Notes under the pieces: model-generated | Database searches by the model: none | What the model saw: the letters and a program-made list of their open reading frames with translations, nothing else | What the model was told of the DNA's origin: nothing | Assembly: GCF_001458695.1 (NCBI RefSeq) | Contig: NZ_LN885086.1 | Span: 480,001-512,000, forward strand | DNA length: 32,000 nt | DNA from: Candidatus Nitrospira inopinata | GTDB taxonomy: Bacteria > Nitrospirota > Nitrospiria > Nitrospirales > Nitrospiraceae | Reading direction: 5' to 3' | Part shown: positions 7,939 to 18,474 of the stretch, piece by piece | Position numbering within the stretch: position 1 is the first letter of the stretch | Layout: every line of letters starts with the position of its first letter | Made by a program: the position numbers and the translations under genes

Positions 7939-10917
7939 TTACACCTCGTCAGCCGTCACGGCGACGGCAAGCGGTATGCCCAGTGCCGCAAAGTGTTTTT
8001 GGCCACAACGGACTTTGTCGGCTTCGATCGTGCGGAGCTTCAAGAAATCCCTCGTCCCTTTGGTTTCCTTGACCAGATAGACCGTTTCGTCCTCGCGTTT
8101 CACAATCGCCCAGTCCGGGTTGTACTCCCCCACCGGGGTGTCTACCTTGAACCAAGAGGGAAGCTTCACGAAGAGTTCGATATCCTCGCGCTGGTCGAGT
8201 TTCCGAGCAAACTCGCGCTCGACCTCCGAGTCGTACACCACATACTCATAAACGGATTTCTTCACCCGAAGAGCATTGAGGTAATTGACCAGTTCCTCGC
8301 TTTTGAAGAGTACCATCTCCCACTCGGCCTCCGGACCGGTGCCAGGCAGCCGTTCGTACTTGATGCCGTCCACAAGGAGTCGATGAAGTTCATGTTTGAG
8401 AATTCCAGCCACGGCGTCCATGAACCGCTGAGGATTGTTGAAGACCTCTCCAAGTCGGCCGGAGGCTTTGAGGATGCGGACGAGCGTGGAGCGGGTCAGC
8501 TCGGTCTCGTTCTGCAGGTAGGCGAGGATGTCTGGCAGCGCGCGCACGCCGTAGACAGGCTGCTCCTCGGCGACGCTCACGGCCGTCGTGATCACCCCGC
8601 CCTTTGCCACCTGGACTTGGCCTGCGGCGACGTGGATCTTCGGCGCTTCGATCTTCTCCATGCGCTTGATGGCCTCCACCGCGCGCCTTACCAGTTCATC
8701 CGTCTCGAATTCGACTCGATAGGTGGTCTTCGGCTTGATACGATTCCAGAGCGACTCAAATTCCTGGCTGAGTACGACCTCCTTCTTGAGCCGGTTCGGA
8801 CCGTCATCCCGCTCTCGGCGGATGTGCCGCTCGATCTGATACGCAGACAAGAGATCAATGACGGTCGGCGTCAGGTCACGGTGCGCCTCGGGCAAATCCA
8901 GCGTGAAGTCCTTCCGTTTGGGGTCAAATGCGGGCTGAATGCGACCGTCAGCATCGAGCATCTTCTGTTCGACCAACGCCGCGCGGACGGCCTCCGCCGC
9001 ATCCCGTCCGATCGGTCGCTCCACGCCGTCCACGACTCGAGTCAGCTTCACGAACGCCGTGAAGGGAACCTTGCCGAAGGTCACACCGCAGTCTTCCTCA
9101 TACTCGGTCTGCAGCGCGCGGGCGAAGTCCTCGTAGCTCTCGTTGGCCATCACGTAGAGCTTGTTGACCGACTCGTCGAAGACACGCCGACCGGTCTGAT
9201 CCACCGGCAGACGAAGACCGCGGCCGATCTCCTGACGCTTCTTCACCACACTCCGGGTCTCATTGAGCGTGCAGATTTGGAAGACGTTCGGGTTGTCCCA
9301 GCCCTCTCGCAGGGCGGAGTGGCTGAAGATGAACCGGAGCGGCTCGTCCAGTGAGAGCAACCGCTCCTTGTCCTTCATAATCAGGTTGTACACTTCGTCG
9401 TCGGCCTGGGTATCGCCTCGCGTATCCTTGAGCACTCCCTTTTTGTCCTGGGCAAAATAGCCGTTGTGCAGGCGGTCAACCGGTTCCTTCAGCCATTCCA
9501 ACTCTTGGTAGCGTTCATCCTTGGCGAACTCTGACAGCGCCGCCTCGAACGCCACGGCGAACTTGCCCTTCACCGGCTTGCCTTCTTCATCATAGTGACG
9601 GTAGTTGGCCACACGGTCGATGAAGAACAACGACAAGACCTTGAGACCGCGCCCACGCACCTGAAGTTCCTTCTCTAGATGCTTCTTGACCGTGTGTTTG
9701 ATTTGTGCCCGCCAGACATCCTCGCGCAGGCCGCCGATCTGCCCGCCAAGCCGCAGCGTGCGGCCGTTCGAGAAGCGCAGGTACTCGTTGCCCGATTCGG
9801 CGTTGATCTCGGTCACCTCAAAGCCGTCACGGTAGGTCGCACGCTCATTGGAGACCGTGAAGAGATCGGCCCCCTGCTTGACCGTGACGGCCTTCTCCTT
9901 TGGTCCTTCGGGTGTCTGGACGTGGATACGGAGCTTCGCCTTGATCCCCTTCTTATAGTCGATCTGTTCGACGCGCACGAAGGCGTCATTCGCCGCGCCC
10001 TCGACTGCCGCGCTTGCGACCACGATCTGCTTGACCAGCTTCAGCTCGAAGGCGCGAACCGGATCGAGGCGGTAGACGAGATTGTAGGGATTGCGGTGCG
10101 TGGCGGAATATCGCAAGGTGCAGAGCGGGTTGAGCGCCTTGATCGCCTCCTGCGCTTTGTCGGTCGAGTCCACGCTCTGCGGCTCGTCGATGATGACGAT
10201 GGGCCGCGCTGCCTGCACGAACTCGATCGGCTGGCGGCCGGAGAGCTTGTCGCTCTCCTTGTAGATGACGTTGCTCTTCTGCTCTTCTTCCGTGCCGGTG
10301 AAGTTCTTGCGGAAGGCGTCGATATTGATGACGAGAATCTGCAGGGTGTTGCTGGTCGCGAACTGACGCAGCCGGTTGACCTTCTTCGCGTCATAGACGA
10401 AGTGCTCAAAGGGCAGATGGTTGTAGAGCGCGCGGAAGTGCTCGGCGGTGATCTCGATGCTCTTGAGCACACCCTCGCGGATGGCCACGCTCGGCACCAC
10501 GATGATGAACTTCTGAAAACCGTAGCGCCGCGACAACTCGAAGATGGTACGCAGGTAGACATAGGTCTTCCCCGTGCCGGTCTCCATCTCGACCGAGAAG
10601 TGCGGGCAGCGTCGTGACTGGTTGGCCGGGCCGTCGAACAGCTCCCATGCCTCGGGCGCGGCGGCGGGATCGGCCACTTCGATGTCGTTGCGTGTCTGGA
10701 TGGCACGCAGGTTCCGGAGCAGCTTGTCCTCCGCTAGGAGCAGGCGATTGCCCGCGCCCAGCTCCGTGCGTTCTTGCCCGGCGAAGAGGCCACCCATCGC
10801 GCCAAGGTTGATGACGGCATATTCCGGCGCCCCCCGTGGTTGGCCGTCGAAGAGGTCGGTGACGGCCGCGACCGCGTCGAGTTGGAATGGCTGGTTCGCG
10901 TCGAATTGGAGTTTCAC
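7939..10917 (-). CDS. res: Type III restriction enzyme Res subunit (SF2 helicase plus C-terminal PD-(D/E)xK nuclease)
   Basis: The N-terminus V/MKLQFDANQPFQLDAVAAVTDLFDGQP is typical of Res. Walker A is EMETGTGKTYVY and motif II is VIIDEPQS. The C-terminal nuclease signature is EYNPDWAIV...VYLVKETKG. I place the start at GTG 10917, which overlaps the DUF2442 stop as GTGA. The 1080-aa track ORF extends too far upstream. Confidence 0.9.
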   Translation of the reverse strand: MKLQFDANQPFQLDAVAAVTDLFDGQPRGAPEYAVINLGAMGGLFAGQERTELGAGNRLLLAEDKLLRNLRAIQTRNDIEVADPAAAPEAWELFDGPANQSRRCPHFSVEMETGTGKTYVYLRTIFELSRRYGFQKFIIVVPSVAIREGVLKSIEITAEHFRALYNHLPFEHFVYDAKKVNRLRQFATSNTLQILVINIDAFRKNFTGTEEEQKSNVIYKESDKLSGRQPIEFVQAARPIVIIDEPQSVDSTDKAQEAIKALNPLCTLRYSATHRNPYNLVYRLDPVRAFELKLVKQIVVASAAVEGAANDAFVRVEQIDYKKGIKAKLRIHVQTPEGPKEKAVTVKQGADLFTVSNERATYRDGFEVTEINAESGNEYLRFSNGRTLRLGGQIGGLREDVWRAQIKHTVKKHLEKELQVRGRGLKVLSLFFIDRVANYRHYDEEGKPVKGKFAVAFEAALSEFAKDERYQELEWLKEPVDRLHNGYFAQDKKGVLKDTRGDTQADDEVYNLIMKDKERLLSLDEPLRFIFSHSALREGWDNPNVFQICTLNETRSVVKKRQEIGRGLRLPVDQTGRRVFDESVNKLYVMANESYEDFARALQTEYEEDCGVTFGKVPFTAFVKLTRVVDGVERPIGRDAAEAVRAALVEQKMLDADGRIQPAFDPKRKDFTLDLPEAHRDLTPTVIDLLSAYQIERHIRRERDDGPNRLKKEVVLSQEFESLWNRIKPKTTYRVEFETDELVRRAVEAIKRMEKIEAPKIHVAAGQVQVAKGGVITTAVSVAEEQPVYGVRALPDILAYLQNETELTRSTLVRILKASGRLGEVFNNPQRFMDAVAGILKHELHRLLVDGIKYERLPGTGPEAEWEMVLFKSEELVNYLNALRVKKSVYEYVVYDSEVEREFARKLDQREDIELFVKLPSWFKVDTPVGEYNPDWAIVKREDETVYLVKETKGTRDFLKLRTIEADKVRCGQKHFAALGIPLAVAVTADEV

Positions 10918-11252
10918 GGTTCGACCGTCCAGTGTCCCTGCATTCGAATGTTGTCGTACATCGCATCCGGCGCGAGGTCGGCGCCATTGGGCCAGGTGAC
11001 CGTCCCAAGCTCGATGCGGGCCTGCGCAAAGAAGGCCGGGTCCCGAAGCGCCTCGAAGACAGTCCCCGTGACACGCGACGCGCTCAGAAACGGTTCGAGT
11101 CGTACTTCGCCGGCAGTCCCGTCGGTAAACTCGACGTCCAACCGCATGCCTGGTTTGACCGTGACGCGCACAATGCGCCAAGGCGCTGCCGACCCCGGGG
11201 GTGGAACTACTCCAGAGGTGGAATCGGTTTTGGTGGGTTGAGTTGGCGACAT
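10914..11252 (-). CDS. DUF2442 family small protein
   Basis: ...RIVRVTVKPGMRLDVEFTDGTAGEVRLEPFL...GTVFEALRDPAFFAQARIELGTVTWPNGADLAPDAMY matches the DUF2442 pattern (F.DG....vdl....G.vFe.LrDp..F..v.....g.i.WPNGaD..Pd.LY). The start is uncertain (ATG 11252 or an internal GTG). The stop overlaps the res start. Confidence 0.8.
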   Translation of the reverse strand: MSPTQPTKTDSTSGVVPPPGSAAPWRIVRVTVKPGMRLDVEFTDGTAGEVRLEPFLSASRVTGTVFEALRDPAFFAQARIELGTVTWPNGADLAPDAMYDNIRMQGHWTVEP

Positions 11253-11466
11253 AGCTCCCAGTCCTCCATCAATGCTTCCCGGTGTTCAGCAGCCCATTCT
11301 AGCACCAGCGCGAGCGCCCGGCGGGGAAGCGCGCCTCGGGTCACCCGCAGCTCACGGATGTCAATAATCGCCTCGTGCTCCGCATAGACGGCGTGAAAGT
11401 GTGGCGGCCGTGCTCGGCTCAGAACATCTGGATCACAATCCCGAAAAACGTGCTGATCGTGGGCAT
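11207..11466 (-). pseudogene. DUF4160 family gene disrupted by an in-frame TGA and a 1-nt frameshift
   Basis: The minus strand reads ATG..MPTISTFFGIVIQMF-TGA-AEHGR, and in another frame (R)PPHFHAVYAEHEAIIDIRELRVTRGALPRRALALVLEWAAEHREALMEDWELCRQLNPPKPIPPLE-TAG. The span is 260 nt, not a multiple of 3. Adding one C in GGCCGCC would restore EHGPPHFHA, the family hallmark. Confidence 0.65.
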
Positions 11467-11470
11467 CAGG

Positions 11471-11520
11471 TCACACCGTCTTAAAACTCGTCACGCCTTT
11501 GGTTTTGAAGATCTGCACGG
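11471..11520. repeat. Direct repeat copy A (50 bp, identical to 13452-13501)
   Basis: TCACACCGTCTTAAAACTCGTCACGCCTTTGGTTTTGAAGATCTGCACGG occurs at both positions on the same strand. Confidence 0.95.
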
Positions 11521-11569
11521 TATTGGCTTGTGAATGGCCGATGAAACTCGGTCCGAGCCCCACGAGCGG
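11471..11569 (-). pseudogene. Relic 3' end of a second mod allele
   Basis: It reads ..TPPLVGLGPSFIGHSQANTVQIFKTKGVTSFKTV*, against the intact Mod tail ..RVVCLDAGFAGNDQLKANAVQIFKTKGVTSFKTV*. The last 50 nt are identical and the upstream part is diverged. There is no start codon or N-terminal body. Its stop lies 4 nt before the DUF4160 ATG. Confidence 0.7.
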
Positions 11570-11732
11570 AGGGGTTGTGAAAGATACCCCGCTGCTCAAA
11601 TTGCTCGTAGAGCGATGGATCATGACGAAACGCCAAGAAATCGAGATACTCCGACGCGACATCGAGCCCTCCCCCAAGCAAAGGGCCACTGGACGGCTGT
11701 TGTCATACAAGCTGGATAGCCCTCTGGCTTTC

Positions 11733-12476
11733 TCATGCGAGTACAGGCAGTGCTTTCCTTGTCGCAGACAGACGTGGCATCTCACTCCATACCTTATTTT
11801 CCAATAGCCGCCCCGCCCGTTTCTTGTTCGGGCCGCCCCATTGCTTGAAAAAGAACGGCACGTCGGCGCGACGACACTGGTCCCGGATGTCCAGGACCCA
11901 GGCCGGATCCATGGGCCGGGCATGAGGGCCGGACTCGCCTCCGACAATGACCCAGTCAATGCCGGTCAGATCGAGGTCTGTCAGGGGGCCGAGCAACGGC
12001 TCCAGCGAGAGAAATTTAATTGCCGCTCCGGTCCGCCTCAGATGCTCGATCCGGTATCGGTATTCATCGCTCTCGATACTGACGCCCATCCAGATATTGG
12101 GCGTCCATTCAAGCGAGGGACTCACTTCTCCAAGTCTCTCGGCGCGCTTGGTGAGCACCTGGAAGCGATGCCAGTGCGCGCGGCCCATCACGTCGAACAC
12201 GGTCTTGATGTATTCGAGTGGGACCTGTTCGTGGAAGAGATCACTCATGGAATTCACGAAGATCGTTTGCGGCTTTTTCCACTTCAGTGGAAGCTCAAGC
12301 ATGTGAGGCTGGAGCGTCAGTTGGAACCCATTCACATAATTTGGTTGCCCCATGGCCTGTAATCGCTCAGCCATCCGCTCGGCATAGCAGTGCTTGCATC
12401 CAGGACTGATCTTCGTGCACCCTGTGACTGGATTCCATGTGGACTCGGTCCATTCGATGCCAGATCCCTGTGCCAT
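11733..12476 (-). CDS. DUF5131 / phage Gp37-Gp68 family three-Cys-motif protein
   Basis: 247 aa. [33 protein letters not shown] carries a C-x6-C-x2-C motif. Family-typical blocks are [41 protein letters not shown] and FFFKQWGG. Its ATG overlaps the tcmP stop as TGATG. Confidence 0.9.
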
Positions 12477-13381
12477 CAGCGCACCTCCTTGAGTAAATGC
12501 TGTGCGATCTTCAAGGCTATCTTCTTCCCGGGTTCATTACCGACGGCAAAGCAAAGAAGGTAGAGCGGATTGTTTGCCGAGTTACGCAACACGCCCGGCT
12601 CTTCTGCAACACCGGCAAAGATCCCTTTGAGTCGGTTGTTGAAATAACGTCCTATGGTTTCCATTGTAGCCTTGACCACACGCTCATTGTCGTCCCCGAA
12701 AAGTGTTGGCATAGTCTCGACCCTATAGAAATCATCGTACCAATCTCTAGTGCCAAGAAGCAGATCGAGGCGGCGACGCCACGATTTTGGAATATCACCC
12801 GACTTGGTCAGCAGACGATTAACTCCGATCCCGAGCGGGAAGAGCAACCACAGATCGATAGCCTTCGTCTTGGCTATGGCTTCGATCATCCTCCACTCGA
12901 CCTGCATGCCATAGGGGTCAAGAAACAGCACTGCGCGTTTGAATCGCCAATCTGTTGCGCATAGTTCCTGGATCTTGGCGTTCGCATCTCCTTGGCGGAT
13001 GTCGATCTTGTCGGCAAGTCCTGGAAACTCAGCCTTCAGGCTTTCAAGATCGGCACAGCGTTCAGGACTACGTTCGATAAAAATGTATCGATCGAATTGC
13101 GGCTCAATCTTGAGTGCCAGACGAGCAGAGCCATCCAGAAACGACTGCGGTTCAGGCTCTGCCATGTCGGGGAAAAGGGTGTTCTGTGGCGAGTCCTCCT
13201 CTTCTTCACGCCGAGCCTCTCGGTAGCCTGTGCCGGCAAACGCATCGATGTACAGCTTCTGAAAAGACGTCTTCTTTAACGCGGTCGTGTAGCTCTTCAA
13301 GTACTTGGCCAGCACCTCCAGCTTTCGGGTGGTCCATTCCCCGCCAAACTGATGCTCCCTGTCTCTTCGATCATCAGGCAT
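12476..13381 (-). CDS. tcmP: Three-Cys-motif partner protein TcmP (Rossmann/SAM-methyltransferase-like motifs)
   Basis: 301 aa. The N-terminus is [24 protein letters not shown] and the protein lies next to a DUF5131 gene, which defines the TcmP family context. Motifs [10 protein letters not shown] (motif I-like) and VLFLDPYG (motif IV-like) are visible. Confidence 0.85.
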
Positions 13382-13420
13382 GGCCTAAGTCGGCCTCATT
13401 CAGAACACTGACCACTTCAA

Positions 13421-13441
13421 ACTGAAAACTGAATACTGAAA
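13421..13441. repeat. Tandem heptamer ACTGAAA / ACTGAAT / ACTGAAA in the AT-rich mod-tcmP junction
   Basis: Read directly at 13421-13427, 13428-13434 and 13435-13441, inside the 70-nt spacer between the mod stop (13452) and the tcmP ATG (13381). Confidence 0.8.
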
Positions 13442-13451
13442 ACCAAATCCT

Positions 13452-13501
13452 TCACACCGTCTTAAAACTCGTCACGCCTTTGGTTTTGAAGATCTGCACG
13501 G
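13452..13501. repeat. Direct repeat copy B (50 bp, identical to 11471-11520); this is the 3' end of intact mod
   Basis: Identical 50-mer. It encodes the last 16 codons plus the stop of Mod. Confidence 0.95.
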
Positions 13502-15353
13502 CGTTGGCCTTGAGCTGGTCGTTGCCGGCAAAGCCTGCGTCCAGGCACACGACCCGCTCCGGTTTCTTGTCGGCCATGGCCCGGATCAGGTCCAACGTCA
13601 GATCCCGTTCCAGGCAGATGAAGAGAGCTCCTCCCGCTACGCTGTACACGGTTTTCCCCCTCTCCTCCTGGGAGAGGGCCGTGGTGAGGGGAAGCGTCAG
13701 CTTCTGGACCGGCGTGGTGAGCGGGAAGCCGCTTTTGAGCAGGATTTCATAGAGAAGGTCCAGCTCGGCGCGGCCCTCGCGGATGTGGTCCACGTGGAGG
13801 TCGAGTTGCCGGGCCAGGGTCTCTGCATCTTTGGGCGCTTCGGCCTCCCAGGGAGTGAAGTTGGATTCGGCGAGCTTGAAGACTTTGAATCCACGGTCCT
13901 GCGGCTTGGCGCCTTCCAAATCGAGCTTTCCAGCATCTTCATCGTTGAGACTCTTGATGACGCGCCGCACGCGCTCCTTGCAGATGTCGGCGATGGTGGG
14001 GTAGTCCTGCCGCCCTGTAGGCTCTGGAAGCTGAACCAGAATGAACTTGCGATTGCCGCCGTCCTGTTTATTCAGATCGAGGACTGCGTGGGCGGTGGTG
14101 CCGGAGCCAGCCATATAGTCCAAGATGATATCCTCGGAATTCGACCCATCGTTAACTGAAATTGAAAGAAGAAACTGAATCAGTGCGGACGGCTTCGGAA
14201 AATCAAACACATCCTTTCCGAGAAGACCATCCACTTCTTTCGAGCCTTCCTGGTTATATGGGCCGATTAGTAGCGAAAGTGGCTTGGTTTTGCGCATCTG
14301 ACCACGTTCGTCTCGGAGATATTGCTTCACCCGGACGTTTAACTTGCCGTCGGTTTCATTCACGACGATCTCGTCGTTTGCCAGTGCTGCATCGACGCGT
14401 TCCTTTGACCATAACCACTGCTTGTCAGGCCATATCTCTTGCCCTTTCCAAGTGATTGGGAATCGGAGATTTGGTCTCGGATCCTTGCTCCCGGTAGCCA
14501 AGGGTTGTGTGACATAGCCCCCTCGAACCGGGAACTTCACATCTTTGCCCTTGTACTCAGCAATTGCTTCCTCAGAAAGAGGCGCGAGAATATTTTCGAC
14601 AGGCATTTTCGAGTAACAGACAATGTACTCATGAACATTCGAGAATCCCTTGGTAAGGGCTCCCGAGTTGTACTTGTTCTTCCAGACAAGTTGCTCAACA
14701 AAATTCTCCTCGCCAAATATCTCATTTGCCAACTTCTTGAGATTATCGACCTCCGTGTCATCAATGCTGATAAAAACCAATCCGTCCTCCCGCAACAGAT
14801 TCCTCGCCAGATACAGCCGTGGGTACATCATGTTGAGCCATTTTGAGTGAAAGCGGCCGTCCGTCTCGGTATTGGTGGAAAACTTCTTGCCTTGCGCATC
14901 CACCTGCCCGGTGTATTCCAGATAGGTCTGCAAACTTTCGGTGTAGTTGTCGGGATAGATGAAGTCGTTGCCGGTGTTGTAGGGCGGGTCAATGTAAATC
15001 ATCTTGACCTTGCCCAGGTAGGACTTCTGCAACAGCTTCAGCACCTCCAGATTGTCGCCCTCGATGATGAGGTTCTCGGTCGTGTCGAAGTTCACGCTCT
15101 CTTCCAGACAGGGCCGTAGGGTGCCAAGGCTCGGCATCTGGATGGTTTTGAAACACTCGGCCTTCCCCGGCCAGGTCATGCCGTAGCGTTCCTTGCCGAC
15201 ATCCACGGATTCGCCCAGCGCGAGCTTCAACCTGTCGAAATCAATCTTCCCGCCTTCCGTGCGGATTTCCGGAAACAGGCGCAGCAATTCTTGTCGCTTG
15301 TCCTCGGCAATGTCGTGGGAGCGTAAATCGAGCTTGTCGGGCTGGTCGGTCAT
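13452..15353 (-). CDS. mod: Type III-like Mod DNA methyltransferase (beta-class N6/N4 amino-MTase)
   Basis: Motif IV is IYIDPPYNTGNDF near the N-terminus and motif I is LDYMAGSGTTAHAV near the C-terminus, with a long variable region between them. This is the Mod/beta-class order. The start is taken at ATG 15353 (MTDQPDKLDL), preceded by AAGGAAG. The track ORF begins 17 codons earlier. Confidence 0.9.
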   Translation of the reverse strand: MTDQPDKLDLRSHDIAEDKRQELLRLFPEIRTEGGKIDFDRLKLALGESVDVGKERYGMTWPGKAECFKTIQMPSLGTLRPCLEESVNFDTTENLIIEGDNLEVLKLLQKSYLGKVKMIYIDPPYNTGNDFIYPDNYTESLQTYLEYTGQVDAQGKKFSTNTETDGRFHSKWLNMMYPRLYLARNLLREDGLVFISIDDTEVDNLKKLANEIFGEENFVEQLVWKNKYNSGALTKGFSNVHEYIVCYSKMPVENILAPLSEEAIAEYKGKDVKFPVRGGYVTQPLATGSKDPRPNLRFPITWKGQEIWPDKQWLWSKERVDAALANDEIVVNETDGKLNVRVKQYLRDERGQMRKTKPLSLLIGPYNQEGSKEVDGLLGKDVFDFPKPSALIQFLLSISVNDGSNSEDIILDYMAGSGTTAHAVLDLNKQDGGNRKFILVQLPEPTGRQDYPTIADICKERVRRVIKSLNDEDAGKLDLEGAKPQDRGFKVFKLAESNFTPWEAEAPKDAETLARQLDLHVDHIREGRAELDLLYEILLKSGFPLTTPVQKLTLPLTTALSQEERGKTVYSVAGGALFICLERDLTLDLIRAMADKKPERVVCLDAGFAGNDQLKANAVQIFKTKGVTSFKTV

Positions 15354-15555
15354 GGTCTTCTTCCTTCGAGTGTTCCATTCATCATGGCCAGGGGCCAACG
15401 TCATCCAACGGGATCGTCAGGCTACAGTGTCATAACTGCATGGTCGGCCGATTGCAAGGTGAGGGGGCAGCCAATTGAAACCCAGGAGGCCGGCCCATCG
15501 ACCTCGATGAAGGGAGGAGCGAAACGCCGGATGTATCCGTTCAGAAATCGACTCG

Positions 15556-15592
15556 GGAGCGCTCGGATGGCTCCGGCTTCCGAGTGCGCTCC
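15556..15592 (-). terminator. Imperfect hairpin immediately after the SNF2 stop
   Basis: GGAGCGCTCGG (15556-15566) pairs with CCGAGTGCGCTCC (15580-15592) with a 1-nt bulge and a 13-nt loop. On the minus strand it is followed by ..GATTTCTGA, a weak U-tract. Confidence 0.3.
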
Positions 15593-15594
15593 AT

Positions 15595-18474
15595 TCACCC
15601 CAGCGTCCATCGCAACGTAAAGAGCGGCTCTTGTTCCAGCTTCTGCTCCAGCCGCCGGCTGATCTCATCCAGCAAGGCATCTTTTTGCCGGTTGATCTCA
15701 CGCGACGCTTCATCAAAGACTTTCCAGGCCTCGATCCGCTTGGATTCCAATTGGCGCAAGGCTCTCTGCCGTTCCAGCTTCTCCGGAAGGTTCGGCGCGA
15801 GACGGGCAGCCTTTTTCGTCTCCTTAATCGTTTCATCAAGCTCATCGAGTTCCGCCTTGAGAGATATCCGCCGATCCTCGGCCCAGCGATCGAGCTTGTC
15901 CATTTCCAGATCGAACCAGCGGCCGTTGCGGGTGGTGAAGTCCTCGAGGAGCTGACGCTCGCGGGATGCGTGGGCCTCGGCCAGCGTTGCGGCGACGGCC
16001 TCGGGTATGACGCATGACCGCTCCACCGTGGCCGGCAGGTCGAACAGGCGGCGGCACTGAACGTCGTCCAGCGGCTCACCGGCGTCGGTTGCGCCTGCAA
16101 AGAAGAGATGGTCCTCGGTCTCCATCGCGCTCACCGTGAGCCTCACGCAGGCAAGCCAGCCGCTGGTGCCGACGAGGGACTCAAGGATCGCGATCTTCTT
16201 GCCACTGTCGCGGTAGTGAAAGGTGACCTCCGCCGGTGGCGTCTCCAGGCCACGGCCGAGGGCGAGCACACGCTGCGCCAGTGGGTGCCCCACGCGATAG
16301 GTATTGGCATCCTCGGTGCGCCTGCCCATGCGGTACGGGCCGGGGTGAATGGCTTCGCCGGCGAAGGGATTGCTGTGGAGCATGAAACTGAAGTCCGAGT
16401 CCTCGAAGCGCGCGTGGTCGCGCAGCAGGTAGCGGGTGAGTCGCCAGAGGCGCTCGTTGAAGCGGTCGAGCACATCCTGGCTTTGGATACGGACCTTCTC
16501 GACCACTTCCTGATCGAAGTTGTCGAGGAGCTTCTCGCGCGCGTCGCGCTGACCTTCTGCAATCTGTGACTCCAGCTCGCGCTGGAGCCGGTCGAACTCG
16601 AACTGGATCTGCTCCGGCGTGCGGCACTTGTGATAGATCCCTGCGATGCGCTTCTCGAAATCGACGCCCGACTCGATCGCGCCGAGCACCTCGTCGCTGG
16701 CACCGAAGACTCCGTTGAACAGGCGGAACTTCTGGTCCAGCAGCTCGTAGACGCGCTGGTCGGCGGCGTTGGTCTTGTTGAGGAAGTTCACCACCACGAC
16801 GTCGAACTTCTGGCCGTAGCGGTGGCAGCGGCCGATCCGCTGCTCGATGCGCTGGGGGTTCCAGGGCAAGTCATAATTCACCACCAAGTTGCAGAACTGG
16901 AGGTTGATGCCCTCGGCGGCGGCTTCGGTGGCGATCAAAATGGCTGCCTCATCGCGGAAGTGCTCGACGAGGGCCGCGCGCATGTCCGCGCTCGGTGACC
17001 CGCTGACCCGGTCCGTTCCCGCGTGCTTCGCCAACCAGCGCTGGTAGATGGCCTTGGAGGTCTGATCGTTGTTCGTGCCGTTGAAGAGCATGACGCGGCC
17101 GCGAAACTCAGTTTGCTCCAGGAGCCGGAAGAGATATTCCTGCGTGCGGCGCGACTCGGTGAAGACCACGGCCTTCTGCTGGAGCGCTGGGCTGCCCTGC
17201 GCGGCCTGGGCTTCGGCGGCGGCGGCAAAGCCACGTCGCAGGGCCGTCAGCAACACCTCGCCCTTCGAGTTCTTGATGATGGACTTGGCAAGGTCGTGAA
17301 ACTCGCGCAGCTCGGCCAGCTCGCGCTTGAGGTCGGCGAGCTGGTCCGGCGTGAGACGTGCCTTTTCGGTGGTCGTTGCACCGTCCTCCTCCCACTCGTC
17401 AATCAGTTCGTCGAGCTGTTCCCAGTCCTCCGGCAGATTCTCAGGTGGGGCTTCCACGGCTTCGGCGCCCGCCGCGGCGGCCTGGAGCCGCTGCACCATG
17501 CCGTCGAGGGTGCCGGAGATGGCGTAGGTCGAGGAGGCGAGGAGCTTCCGCAGGATCAGCGTGATAAGCTGCCGCTGGCTCACCGGCAGGGCGTAGAGGG
17601 TCTCCCGCTGAAGGTAGTTGGAGACAAGATCGTACAGCCGCTGCTCATCCGGAGTGGGCACGAATTCCTGCACGAGCGCGTGGCGGTTCGTGTACTTGAC
17701 GTACTCGAGCGCCTGCCGACGGAGCGTGCGCTTGCAGAGAGGCGCAAGACGTTCCTTGAGTTCAGCGAAATCGGTGTCGTCGCCGAGACGCGAGAAGCGG
17801 CTGCGGTAACTCTGGAGGTCGCCGAAGGCGAAGTCGTCGATGATGCTGACGAGACCGTAGAGCTCGAGGAGGGAATTCTGGAGGGGCGTGGCGGTAAGCA
17901 GCACTTTCGGGAAGGGTGCAACCGCTTGTTTGATCGCCAGCGCGATCTTGCTCGAGCCCTTATAGACATTGCGCAGGCGATGAGCCTCGTCGATGACCAC
18001 GAGATCCCAGGCGGTTTGGCGAAGGTATGGTTCTTTGGAGCGCGCAAACTGGTAGGAACAGAGGACGACGGCATCCTGTTGGAACGGGTTCAGGTGACCG
18101 GCGCGAATGGCTTCGTTGAAACTGCGGGTCTCGAGGATCACCGAGGGGAGATAAAACTTGTCCTCAAGCTCCTGGCTCCACTGCTTGCGCAGGTTGGCGG
18201 GAAGGATGACCAGGAGGCGCCGCTTCCGCTCGGCCCACTTCTGGGCAATCAGTAATCCGGCCTCAATCGTTTTACCGAGGCCCACTTCGTCGGCAAGGAT
18301 GGCCCCCTTCGAGAAGGGACTGCGGAAGGCGAACAGTGCCGCCTCGACCTGGTGAGGATTGAGGTCAACCTGCGCATCGGCGAGCACGGAGGCAAACTTC
18401 TCCATACTATCGGAGGCGCAACGCCTGGTCAGTTCGTGAGCCAGGTATTTCGCGTGGTAGGGGGTCAGGCTCAT
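15595..18474 (-). CDS. SNF2-family helicase/translocase with a long C-terminal extension
   Basis: 959 aa. Motif I is LADEVGLGKT, motif II is VVIDEAHRLRN, motif III is LTATPLQNS and motif VI is QRIGRCHRYGQ. About 360 C-terminal residues have no recognisable motif and end in a charged, heptad-like segment. Confidence 0.9.
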   Translation of the reverse strand: MSLTPYHAKYLAHELTRRCASDSMEKFASVLADAQVDLNPHQVEAALFAFRSPFSKGAILADEVGLGKTIEAGLLIAQKWAERKRRLLVILPANLRKQWSQELEDKFYLPSVILETRSFNEAIRAGHLNPFQQDAVVLCSYQFARSKEPYLRQTAWDLVVIDEAHRLRNVYKGSSKIALAIKQAVAPFPKVLLTATPLQNSLLELYGLVSIIDDFAFGDLQSYRSRFSRLGDDTDFAELKERLAPLCKRTLRRQALEYVKYTNRHALVQEFVPTPDEQRLYDLVSNYLQRETLYALPVSQRQLITLILRKLLASSTYAISGTLDGMVQRLQAAAAGAEAVEAPPENLPEDWEQLDELIDEWEEDGATTTEKARLTPDQLADLKRELAELREFHDLAKSIIKNSKGEVLLTALRRGFAAAAEAQAAQGSPALQQKAVVFTESRRTQEYLFRLLEQTEFRGRVMLFNGTNNDQTSKAIYQRWLAKHAGTDRVSGSPSADMRAALVEHFRDEAAILIATEAAAEGINLQFCNLVVNYDLPWNPQRIEQRIGRCHRYGQKFDVVVVNFLNKTNAADQRVYELLDQKFRLFNGVFGASDEVLGAIESGVDFEKRIAGIYHKCRTPEQIQFEFDRLQRELESQIAEGQRDAREKLLDNFDQEVVEKVRIQSQDVLDRFNERLWRLTRYLLRDHARFEDSDFSFMLHSNPFAGEAIHPGPYRMGRRTEDANTYRVGHPLAQRVLALGRGLETPPAEVTFHYRDSGKKIAILESLVGTSGWLACVRLTVSAMETEDHLFFAGATDAGEPLDDVQCRRLFDLPATVERSCVIPEAVAATLAEAHASRERQLLEDFTTRNGRWFDLEMDKLDRWAEDRRISLKAELDELDETIKETKKAARLAPNLPEKLERQRALRQLESKRIEAWKVFDEASREINRQKDALLDEISRRLEQKLEQEPLFTLRWTLG

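Follow-up and report, generated by a model that had tools for sequence, protein, structure and literature searches.

A translationally coupled TcmP–DUF5131 gene pair is exchangeable cargo in the mod–res spacer of a type III-like restriction operon of Candidatus Nitrospira inopinata

A screen for genes embedded within other defence systems (Payne, Hughes, Fineran, Jackson; bioRxiv 10.1101/2024.01.29.577857) yielded PDC-M41, a candidate defence pair to which the two genes analysed here belong. These genes, encoding TcmP (301 aa; 12476..13381, minus strand) and a DUF5131 protein of the Gp37/Gp68 family (247 aa; 11733..12476, minus strand), lie in a 32,000-nt stretch of the genome of Candidatus Nitrospira inopinata (contig NZ_LN885086.1, positions 480,001 to 512,000), hereafter the window, in whose coordinates all positions are given unless another locus is named. 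Both proteins match the PADLOC models end to end (PDC-M41A, E = 1.9e-133; PDC-M41B, E = 6.2e-124), their genes are adjacent, and they are embedded in a defence system as in the definition of the candidate, the host here being a SNF2–Mod–Res type III-like operon. TcmP scored 211.4 bits against NCBIfam TIGR04474 (cut-off 53), which places it in that family, with its PF07505 partner gene next door; no Pfam family matched it. DUF5131 scored 343 bits against PF07505 (cut-off 28.9; E = 1e-102), covering positions 2–243 of 243. With both models matched above cut-off in adjacent genes that show the conserved 1-nt overlap, there is no family-level difference: the pair is an ordinary member of TIGR04474/PF07505, already catalogued as PDC-M41, and its enzymology is already implicit in the existing catalogues. 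Literature on DUF5131/PF07505, TcmP, Gp37/Gp68, PDC-M41 and the CX6CX2C motif consisted of catalogue-level mentions, and no functional study was found.

Relatives of the DUF5131 half have been described under other names. DUF5131 constitutes the radical S-adenosylmethionine (SAM) subgroup Megacluster-5-2, for which CX6CX2C is listed as a variant cluster motif (SFLD/RadicalSAM.org; PMC9477430), and spore photoproduct lyase forms Megacluster-5-3 of the same megacluster (PMC9477430). NCBIfam TIGR04471, 'radical SAM mobile pair protein A', is homologous to DUF5131 (E = 2e-25) and is described as one half of a mobile two-gene pair; it differs in that DUF5131 reaches 89.6 bits against this model, far under the cut-off of 355, and is not a member.

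The first-pass annotation of the window had placed the pair between mod and res, had described its genes as coupled through TGATG, and had suggested that it could install a non-canonical modification working alongside, or in place of, Mod methylation. The arrangement was borne out: mod and res are both intact, TcmP and DUF5131 share one base in TGATG, and a DUF4160 pseudogene and a DUF2442 gene, unmentioned in that annotation, also lie between the pair and res. The same 1-nt TGATG overlap occurs in Nitrospira, Myxococcales, Binatia and other contigs, so that the two genes are translationally coupled across phyla.

The occupancy of the mod–res spacer was then compared across the family. Scanning metagenomes for the conserved 3′ end of mod, by means of a degenerate pattern, recovered 120 SNF2–Mod–Res family loci, and a TcmP scan recovered 8 loci in Nitrospira genomes; occupancy was scored on the 77 loci that have both the mod stop and the res start, in contig counts that include near-duplicates and are not lineage counts, which makes the frequencies approximate. 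At 21 of the 77 loci mod and res are 4–74 nt apart, usually 10–13 nt, and at the remaining 56 tightly packed cargo fills the spacer. The most frequent cargo was a Schlafen/AlbA_2 plus HATPase_c_4 protein (30 loci), followed by TcmP with DUF5131 (9 loci, one with a divergent TcmP variant), a DUF1016/YhcG PDDEXK nuclease (5 loci), DUF4160/DUF2442 alone and an ATPase_2/AAA_14 protein (4 loci each), GmrSD and Fic (2 loci each), and HEPN, DUF559 and DUF2283 (1 locus each); one locus held a TcmP remnant only. Cargo unrelated to the pair occupies the spacer at 46 of the 77 loci. The pair is one of at least ten alternative cassettes in a spacer of about 10 nt, an instance of the 'embedding' of defence genes, and it is exchangeable cargo rather than a component of the surrounding restriction system. 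The candidate interpretation of the pair as an integral subunit of the restriction–modification (RM) system was rejected on this occupancy (pair 9, empty 21, other cargo 46 of 77).

The pair also outlives the RM system and occurs apart from it. At two loci (L001 and L002) it is intact, with SNF2 and Mod shrunk to a fused fragment in which SNF2 residues ~1–185/201 are joined to a C-terminal fragment of Mod (L001 8389–9927; L002 9227–9927); this fusion, which lies immediately upstream of the pair, implies that a large internal part of the RM system has been deleted, and L002 has lost Res as well. At L008 and L003 the pair stands at the end of a different Mod–Res system, the layout at L008 (4230–12316), from another Nitrospira, being DUF4160/DUF2442, a Mod-like methylase of 829 aa, a Res-like helicase of 824 aa, TcmP, DUF5131 and, after these, a Macro-domain protein. 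Intact pairs without RM genes were found at L004, where the neighbours are unrelated genes, in a genome of the Myxococcales and on a further long contig (L133, L137), and in phages, so the proposal that the pair is confined to the RM system was likewise discarded. A conserved third gene with a Pfam assignment was not found beside the stand-alone pairs.

These distributions bear on the reading of the pair as a functional accessory of the type III system, whose modification would cooperate with or replace that of Mod to shield DNA from Res. Such a role would suit the co-orientation and tight packing of the pair between mod and res in one operon, its recurrence at this junction in several architectures, including a Binatia genome (L136) in which the pair again lies between mod and res with its stop overlapping the res start, and the apparent import of Mod and the pair as one block (see below). 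We nevertheless consider it quite unlikely: the pair is missing from most family loci, where the spacer is empty or filled otherwise, Mod is full length with its catalytic motifs, and the pair persists after loss of SNF2, Mod or Res and in RM-free settings. Of the modification proposed in the first-pass annotation, the enzymology and a joint role on nucleic acid remain plausible on the basis of fold, motifs and radical-SAM subgroup, whereas the link to Mod and Res is not supported by the 77-locus occupancy and the RM-free pairs. At this locus the pair is better treated as an independent module than as part of the restriction system.

The way in which cassettes enter and leave the spacer may be recorded in a repeat. 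The last 57 nt of mod (13452–13508), stop codon included, recur 1981 nt downstream at 11471–11527 on the minus strand with 55 of 57 positions identical, so that the two copies bracket the pair. Across the family a second mod-end copy is present only where two cassettes are stacked, and always between the two: it lies 3′ of the pair in the window and at L001, L002, L006 and L088, with a DUF4160 gene or fragment next after it wherever this was examined (window, L001, L002, L006), and it separates unrelated cargo at L071, L081 and L099. The single-cassette pair loci L007, L043, L112 and L118 have no second copy. Copy lengths across the loci are 57, 63, 76, 76, at least 84, 92, 99 and 99 nt. From the middle of mod, across the pair and up to the final base of the copy, window and L001 share 96% identity, and in res 95%; between these segments their DUF4160 and DUF2442 genes are different alleles with 53% and 37% amino-acid identity.

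On its simplest reading, the 57-nt copy would be a recombination scar at the boundary between two stacked cassettes. An incoming 'mod allele plus pair' would have taken the place of the resident mod except for its last 57 nt, which stayed behind; the pair probably came in together with the mod allele now present and was set upstream of a DUF4160/DUF2442 cassette of greater age. Homology arms for later cassette swaps could be provided by the conserved sequences at the 3′ end of mod and the 5′ end of res. It is the comparative anatomy of the loci that suggests this history. At two loci, L016 and L126, the ~50 nt directly in front of res, behind the pair, preserve the 3′ end of a Schlafen/AlbA_2 cassette (coding ...RPDQAYT...), the remnant of a replaced cassette. 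In front of res, L028 (4113–7866) and L069 (2747–6500) each have a tandem of complete type III mod genes, two in number, with 58.8% and 61.2% identity to the Mod of the window; whole mod alleles can therefore be stacked like cargo.

The bracketing repeats might instead be taken for attachment sites, the pair then being a site-specific mobile cassette with the 3′ end of mod as its target. In favour of this, near-identical direct repeats surround the pair, similar brackets occur at L001, L002, L005, L006 and L088, each copy resembling the mod of its own locus, and L004 keeps a mod-like end of ~18 nt upstream of TcmP in its non-RM context. We rejected this explanation as highly improbable: neither the cassette nor its immediate surroundings contain a recombinase, the repeat varies in extent (57–99 nt), the single-cassette pair loci lack it, and it also brackets unrelated cargo, always between two cassettes.

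Base composition is in keeping with the scar reading. The pair had been described as clearly AT-richer than SNF2 and res, at about 45% against about 70% GC. The direction of this difference was reproduced, TcmP and DUF5131 having GC contents of 52.6% and 57.1% (60% and 68% at third codon positions, GC3) against 62.8% for SNF2 and 60.3% for Res (GC3 82% and 80%); its size had been overstated, although such values are possible for single 60-nt windows, which range over 42–73% GC in the pair and 42–80% in SNF2 and Res. The dip is not specific to the pair, because Mod shows it too (54.4%; GC3 70%), and a dip common to both fits the co-import of mod and the pair.

The composition of the module itself was examined at the level of motifs and predicted structure. 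A SAM-methyltransferase-like motif I in TcmP, followed some 110 residues later by a motif IV-like VLFLDPYG, had been noted in the first-pass annotation, and both were recovered: motif I is D46-A-F-A-G50-T-G52 (DAFAGTG), within residues 44–53, and VLFLDPYG occupies residues 151–158, 107 residues from the motif I stretch. Motif II corresponds to E103, motif III to D132/N134 and motif IV to D155-P-Y-G158. In a sample of 130 diverse homologues (41–54% identity) these positions are nearly invariant: D46 and G50 are kept in all 130 and G52 in 128; E/D103 in 129; D/E132 and N134 in 123 each; D155 in 130, P156 in 129, Y/F157 in 124 and G158 in 114. Like the cysteines of DUF5131 described below, these motifs are family-defining rather than matches by chance.

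Structure prediction, which had been proposed as a check for a Rossmann or SAM-binding fold in TcmP, supports this assignment. The AlphaFold2 model built from the 130-sequence alignment (predicted local distance difference test (pLDDT), 90.4; predicted template modelling score (pTM), 0.89) predicts with high confidence a seven-stranded, Rossmann-like class-I SAM-methyltransferase fold. A Foldseek search with the model gave 160 PDB matches at E ≤ 1e-3, and the best 50 of these 160 are nearly all SAM-dependent methyl- or aminopropyl-transferases, the exceptions being two plant GRAS-protein complexes; viral matches in BFVD at the same threshold are mostly methyltransferases. The structural neighbours in PDB and BFVD include RlmJ, Trm1 and a DUF519 protein. 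With RsmD, Trm1 and RlmJ, TcmP shares the fold, the motif order I-II-III-IV and a D-P-[Y/F]-G at the position of motif IV, and a sub-threshold profile match aligns its FLDPYG with the DPPY of RsmD-type methylases. It differs from them in the missing second proline of DPPY, in a disordered insertion of ~30 residues directly after motif I and in an extra C-terminal alpha/beta subdomain (residues ~200–300), and there is no significant sequence similarity (best E = 0.15). Searches of PDB chains with the sequences and profiles of TcmP and DUF5131 returned nothing significant, and no domain fusion among the longer TcmP homologues ties TcmP to a substrate or to DUF5131. The family is large, 3420 TcmP cluster representatives matching at E ≤ 1e-3. 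A divergent TcmP variant of 368 aa is paired with DUF5131 at L126 (mod–res gap, 3792 nt) and shows a weak match to a GMT-like winged helix-turn-helix at its C-terminus; it probably corresponds to PADLOC PDC-M30, and L020 may hold the same variant.

DUF5131, whose sequence shows 100% identity to a protein of Candidatus Nitrospira inopinata, carries C20-x6-C27-x2-C30 near its N-terminus, as previously annotated. The three cysteines are invariant in shallow and deep alignments, including phage homologues at 38–57% identity, with spacings of x4–x8 in distant phage members, and C201 is likewise invariant; judged from sequence, the CX6CX2C motif is a putative [4Fe-4S] site. The AlphaFold2 model has a well-predicted beta/alpha core (residues 80–210) and an unresolved N-terminus. 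Foldseek matches to it are TIM barrels and spore photoproduct lyase at weak E values of about 0.01–0.03, the lyase being the best natural match (E about 0.01). Spore photoproduct lyase, a DNA-repair enzyme and, among characterised proteins, the nearest relative of DUF5131, is itself a partial TIM barrel with an N-terminal cluster loop and belongs, as noted above, to the same megacluster; DUF5131 differs from it in being ~100 residues shorter and in having CX6CX2C instead of CX3CX2C, and the structural E value is only about 0.01.

Taken together, these data lead us to the reading, at a probability of about 0.6, that the pair is an autonomous, translationally coupled, SAM-dependent two-enzyme module that modifies nucleic acid, probably DNA, and travels as RM-independent cargo. 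In this scheme DUF5131, a small radical-SAM enzyme, would bind a [4Fe-4S] cluster through CX6CX2C; TcmP would recognise or methylate the target base, its D-P-[Y/F]-G motif IV being of the type that holds a flipped-out base in amino-methyltransferases; and DUF5131 would perform 5′-deoxyadenosyl-radical chemistry on that base. The joint outcome would be a non-canonical modification or a lesion, used for defence or counter-defence. We infer that the two proteins act together on nucleic acid, and a defence-related role is suggested because the pair is embedded in RM systems and located in a prophage. DNA is the likelier substrate because DUF5131 is related to spore photoproduct lyase and is found in DNA-centred contexts.

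Several observations weigh against this reading. The solved structures nearest to TcmP are RNA and not DNA methyltransferases, and TM-scores against them are just 0.33–0.45. For DUF5131, model quality is only moderate (pLDDT 70.9, falling below 50 in the cluster loop), and the structural matches obtained with it are weak. In phages DUF5131 mostly lacks a TcmP gene next to it, as in the case of the founders gp37 and gp68, so the two are not universal partners, and PDC-M41 is itself a prediction only (bioRxiv 10.1101/2024.01.29.577857). The occupancy frequencies are approximate, and capture of the pair at the mod–res junction is seen in no fewer than five architectures and also outside the phylum, in Binatia (L136); such repeated capture could reflect functional synergy with the RM family rather than a neutral hot spot.

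The methyltransferase neighbours of TcmP raise the alternative that the pair acts on RNA (tRNA or rRNA), for example by modifying or repairing a translation component that is targeted in phage infection. The best structural neighbours of TcmP are rRNA/tRNA amino-methyltransferases (RlmJ, Trm1, RsmD-type), its viral Foldseek matches are mostly RNA methyltransferases, and RNA-directed systems such as PrrC are embedded in RM operons (bioRxiv 10.1101/2024.01.29.577857). We regard an RNA substrate as unlikely: the DUF5131 subgroup clusters with spore photoproduct lyase, a DNA-repair enzyme, the contexts of DUF5131 are DNA-centred (RM systems, phage DNA methyltransferases, integrases), the divergent TcmP variant has its weak winged helix-turn-helix match, and a putative mycobacterial homologue lies in a DNA-damage-induced cluster. 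The putative homologue is Mycobacterium tuberculosis Rv2734, to which the GenBank note of phage phiE125 declares gp37 similar; Rv2734 is reported to belong to a mitomycin-C-induced cluster with Rv2735c, recX and recA (PMC5057432). The similarity is a weak lead toward a DNA substrate.

Phage genomes place the module in a further context. DUF5131 is encoded in 180 phage records, most of them from phages of Mycobacterium, Gordonia and Burkholderia. The proteins after which the family is named, phiE125 gp37 and Che9c gp68, as well as the RcapNL protein, are of greater length and contain insertions; genes for DNA methyltransferases or integrases are found nearby, but no TcmP-like neighbour. Complete pairs also exist in phages, in a convergent arrangement, in Gordonia phage Fairfaxidum and Synechococcus phage Ssp-JY39; in the temperate Fairfaxidum the pair (gp42/gp43; gp43 scores 109 bits against TIGR04474) lies between helix-turn-helix regulators, an integrase and the immunity repressor. 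This placement in the lysogeny module is no less compatible with prophage-encoded defence than with anti-restriction. In phage annotation a TcmP homologue already bears the label 'methyltransferase'.

Mobility of this kind would also be accounted for if the pair were an RM-like selfish module in which TcmP methylates and protects self nucleic acid and DUF5131 damages unmodified DNA by radical chemistry. Its persistence would be explained as well, both open reading frames (ORFs) being intact amid decayed surroundings; the 76–80% identity of DUF5131 across phyla suggests horizontal spread, the methyltransferase-first coupled order in bacteria and the convergent order in phages are both common in RM systems, and NCBIfam names the related TIGR04471 family a 'mobile pair'. 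We hold this alternative to be doubtful, since DUF5131 stands alone in many phages (Che9c gp68, phiE125 gp37, RcapNL) and is thus not obviously toxic without TcmP, and since no nuclease-like domain was found.

The two-enzyme module reading can be taken further. It is possible, and we put it forward tentatively, that the pair carries out undescribed radical-SAM chemistry on DNA, yielding a new epigenetic mark or a targeted lesion, as a self-contained, horizontally mobile defence or counter-defence module, and that its repeated capture beside type III mod genes reflects synergy with restriction; if so, it would be a defence or counter-defence module of a new mechanistic class. More generally, the joint action of a methyltransferase-fold protein and a spore photoproduct lyase-like radical-SAM enzyme could reveal a new nucleic-acid modification or defence mechanism. 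What remains of interest is the chemistry of this radical-SAM/methyltransferase-like pair, which is very widespread, and the mod–res spacer of this type III-like RM family as a cargo hot spot, which offers natural empty, single and stacked sites for the study of cargo exchange.

At the window locus, the pair is part of a single minus-strand operon spanning 18474..7939, in the order SNF2, Mod, TcmP, DUF5131, trailer, mod-end copy, DUF4160, DUF2442 and Res. The first gene (15595..18474) encodes a DrmD-like SNF2-family helicase (Pfam SNF2-rel_dom and Helicase_C; 686 bits against NCBIfam DISARM_DrmD_b, under the cut-off of 950), which is context outside the TcmP/DUF5131 pair. The second (13452..15404) encodes the type III DNA methyltransferase Mod, which is full length and has the motifs DPPY and AGSG (PF01555; PADLOC MTase_III, E = 4e-193, residues 23–649). 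Downstream of the pair and the mod-end copy, the DUF4160 pseudogene (11253..11466), first gene of the DUF4160/DUF2442 cassette, was recognised by tblastn with the L006 orthologue, whose match splits over two frames; codon 16 has changed from TGG to an in-frame TGA stop, and close to codon 20 there is a −1 frameshift. The intact DUF2442 gene (10914..11252; PF10387, E = 4e-13) has a stop that overlaps the start codon of res. Res (7939..10917) is full length with helicase and endonuclease (PADLOC REase_III, E = 3e-304, residues 90–1067 of the long ORF). Its start is the GTG at 10917 (VKLQFD...), which aligns with all family members; a TTG at 11181, giving an ORF of 7939–11181 that overlaps DUF2442, was ruled out by family homology. 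The operon is flanked by housekeeping genes (PBP1A, TypA/BipA, AhpC and a CCG/Fe-S protein), with no integrase or tRNA in the flanks.

Two non-coding segments adjoin the pair, and counts of internal promoters and terminators near it were not above shuffled expectation. The trailer 3′ of DUF5131 (205 nt; 11528..11732, minus strand) was common to L001 and L002 only by blastn and showed no unusual folding (z = −1.07); for trailer and leader alike, Rfam gave a chance-level match only. The trailer region holds a 66-aa ORF (11681..11481) with an 'EYLDFLAF' stretch, which might be a gene remnant. The leader, 70 nt from the mod stop to the TcmP ATG (13382..13451, minus strand), consists of TTTCAGT-like heptamer repeats and is also found at L001 and L002. 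Leader-like heptamer repeats in both orientations flank, at L038 (1222–1340 and 1680–1707), a small ORF directly after mod that by eye resembles a four-helix-bundle/IVS protein, and these repeats may be the footprint of another small element.

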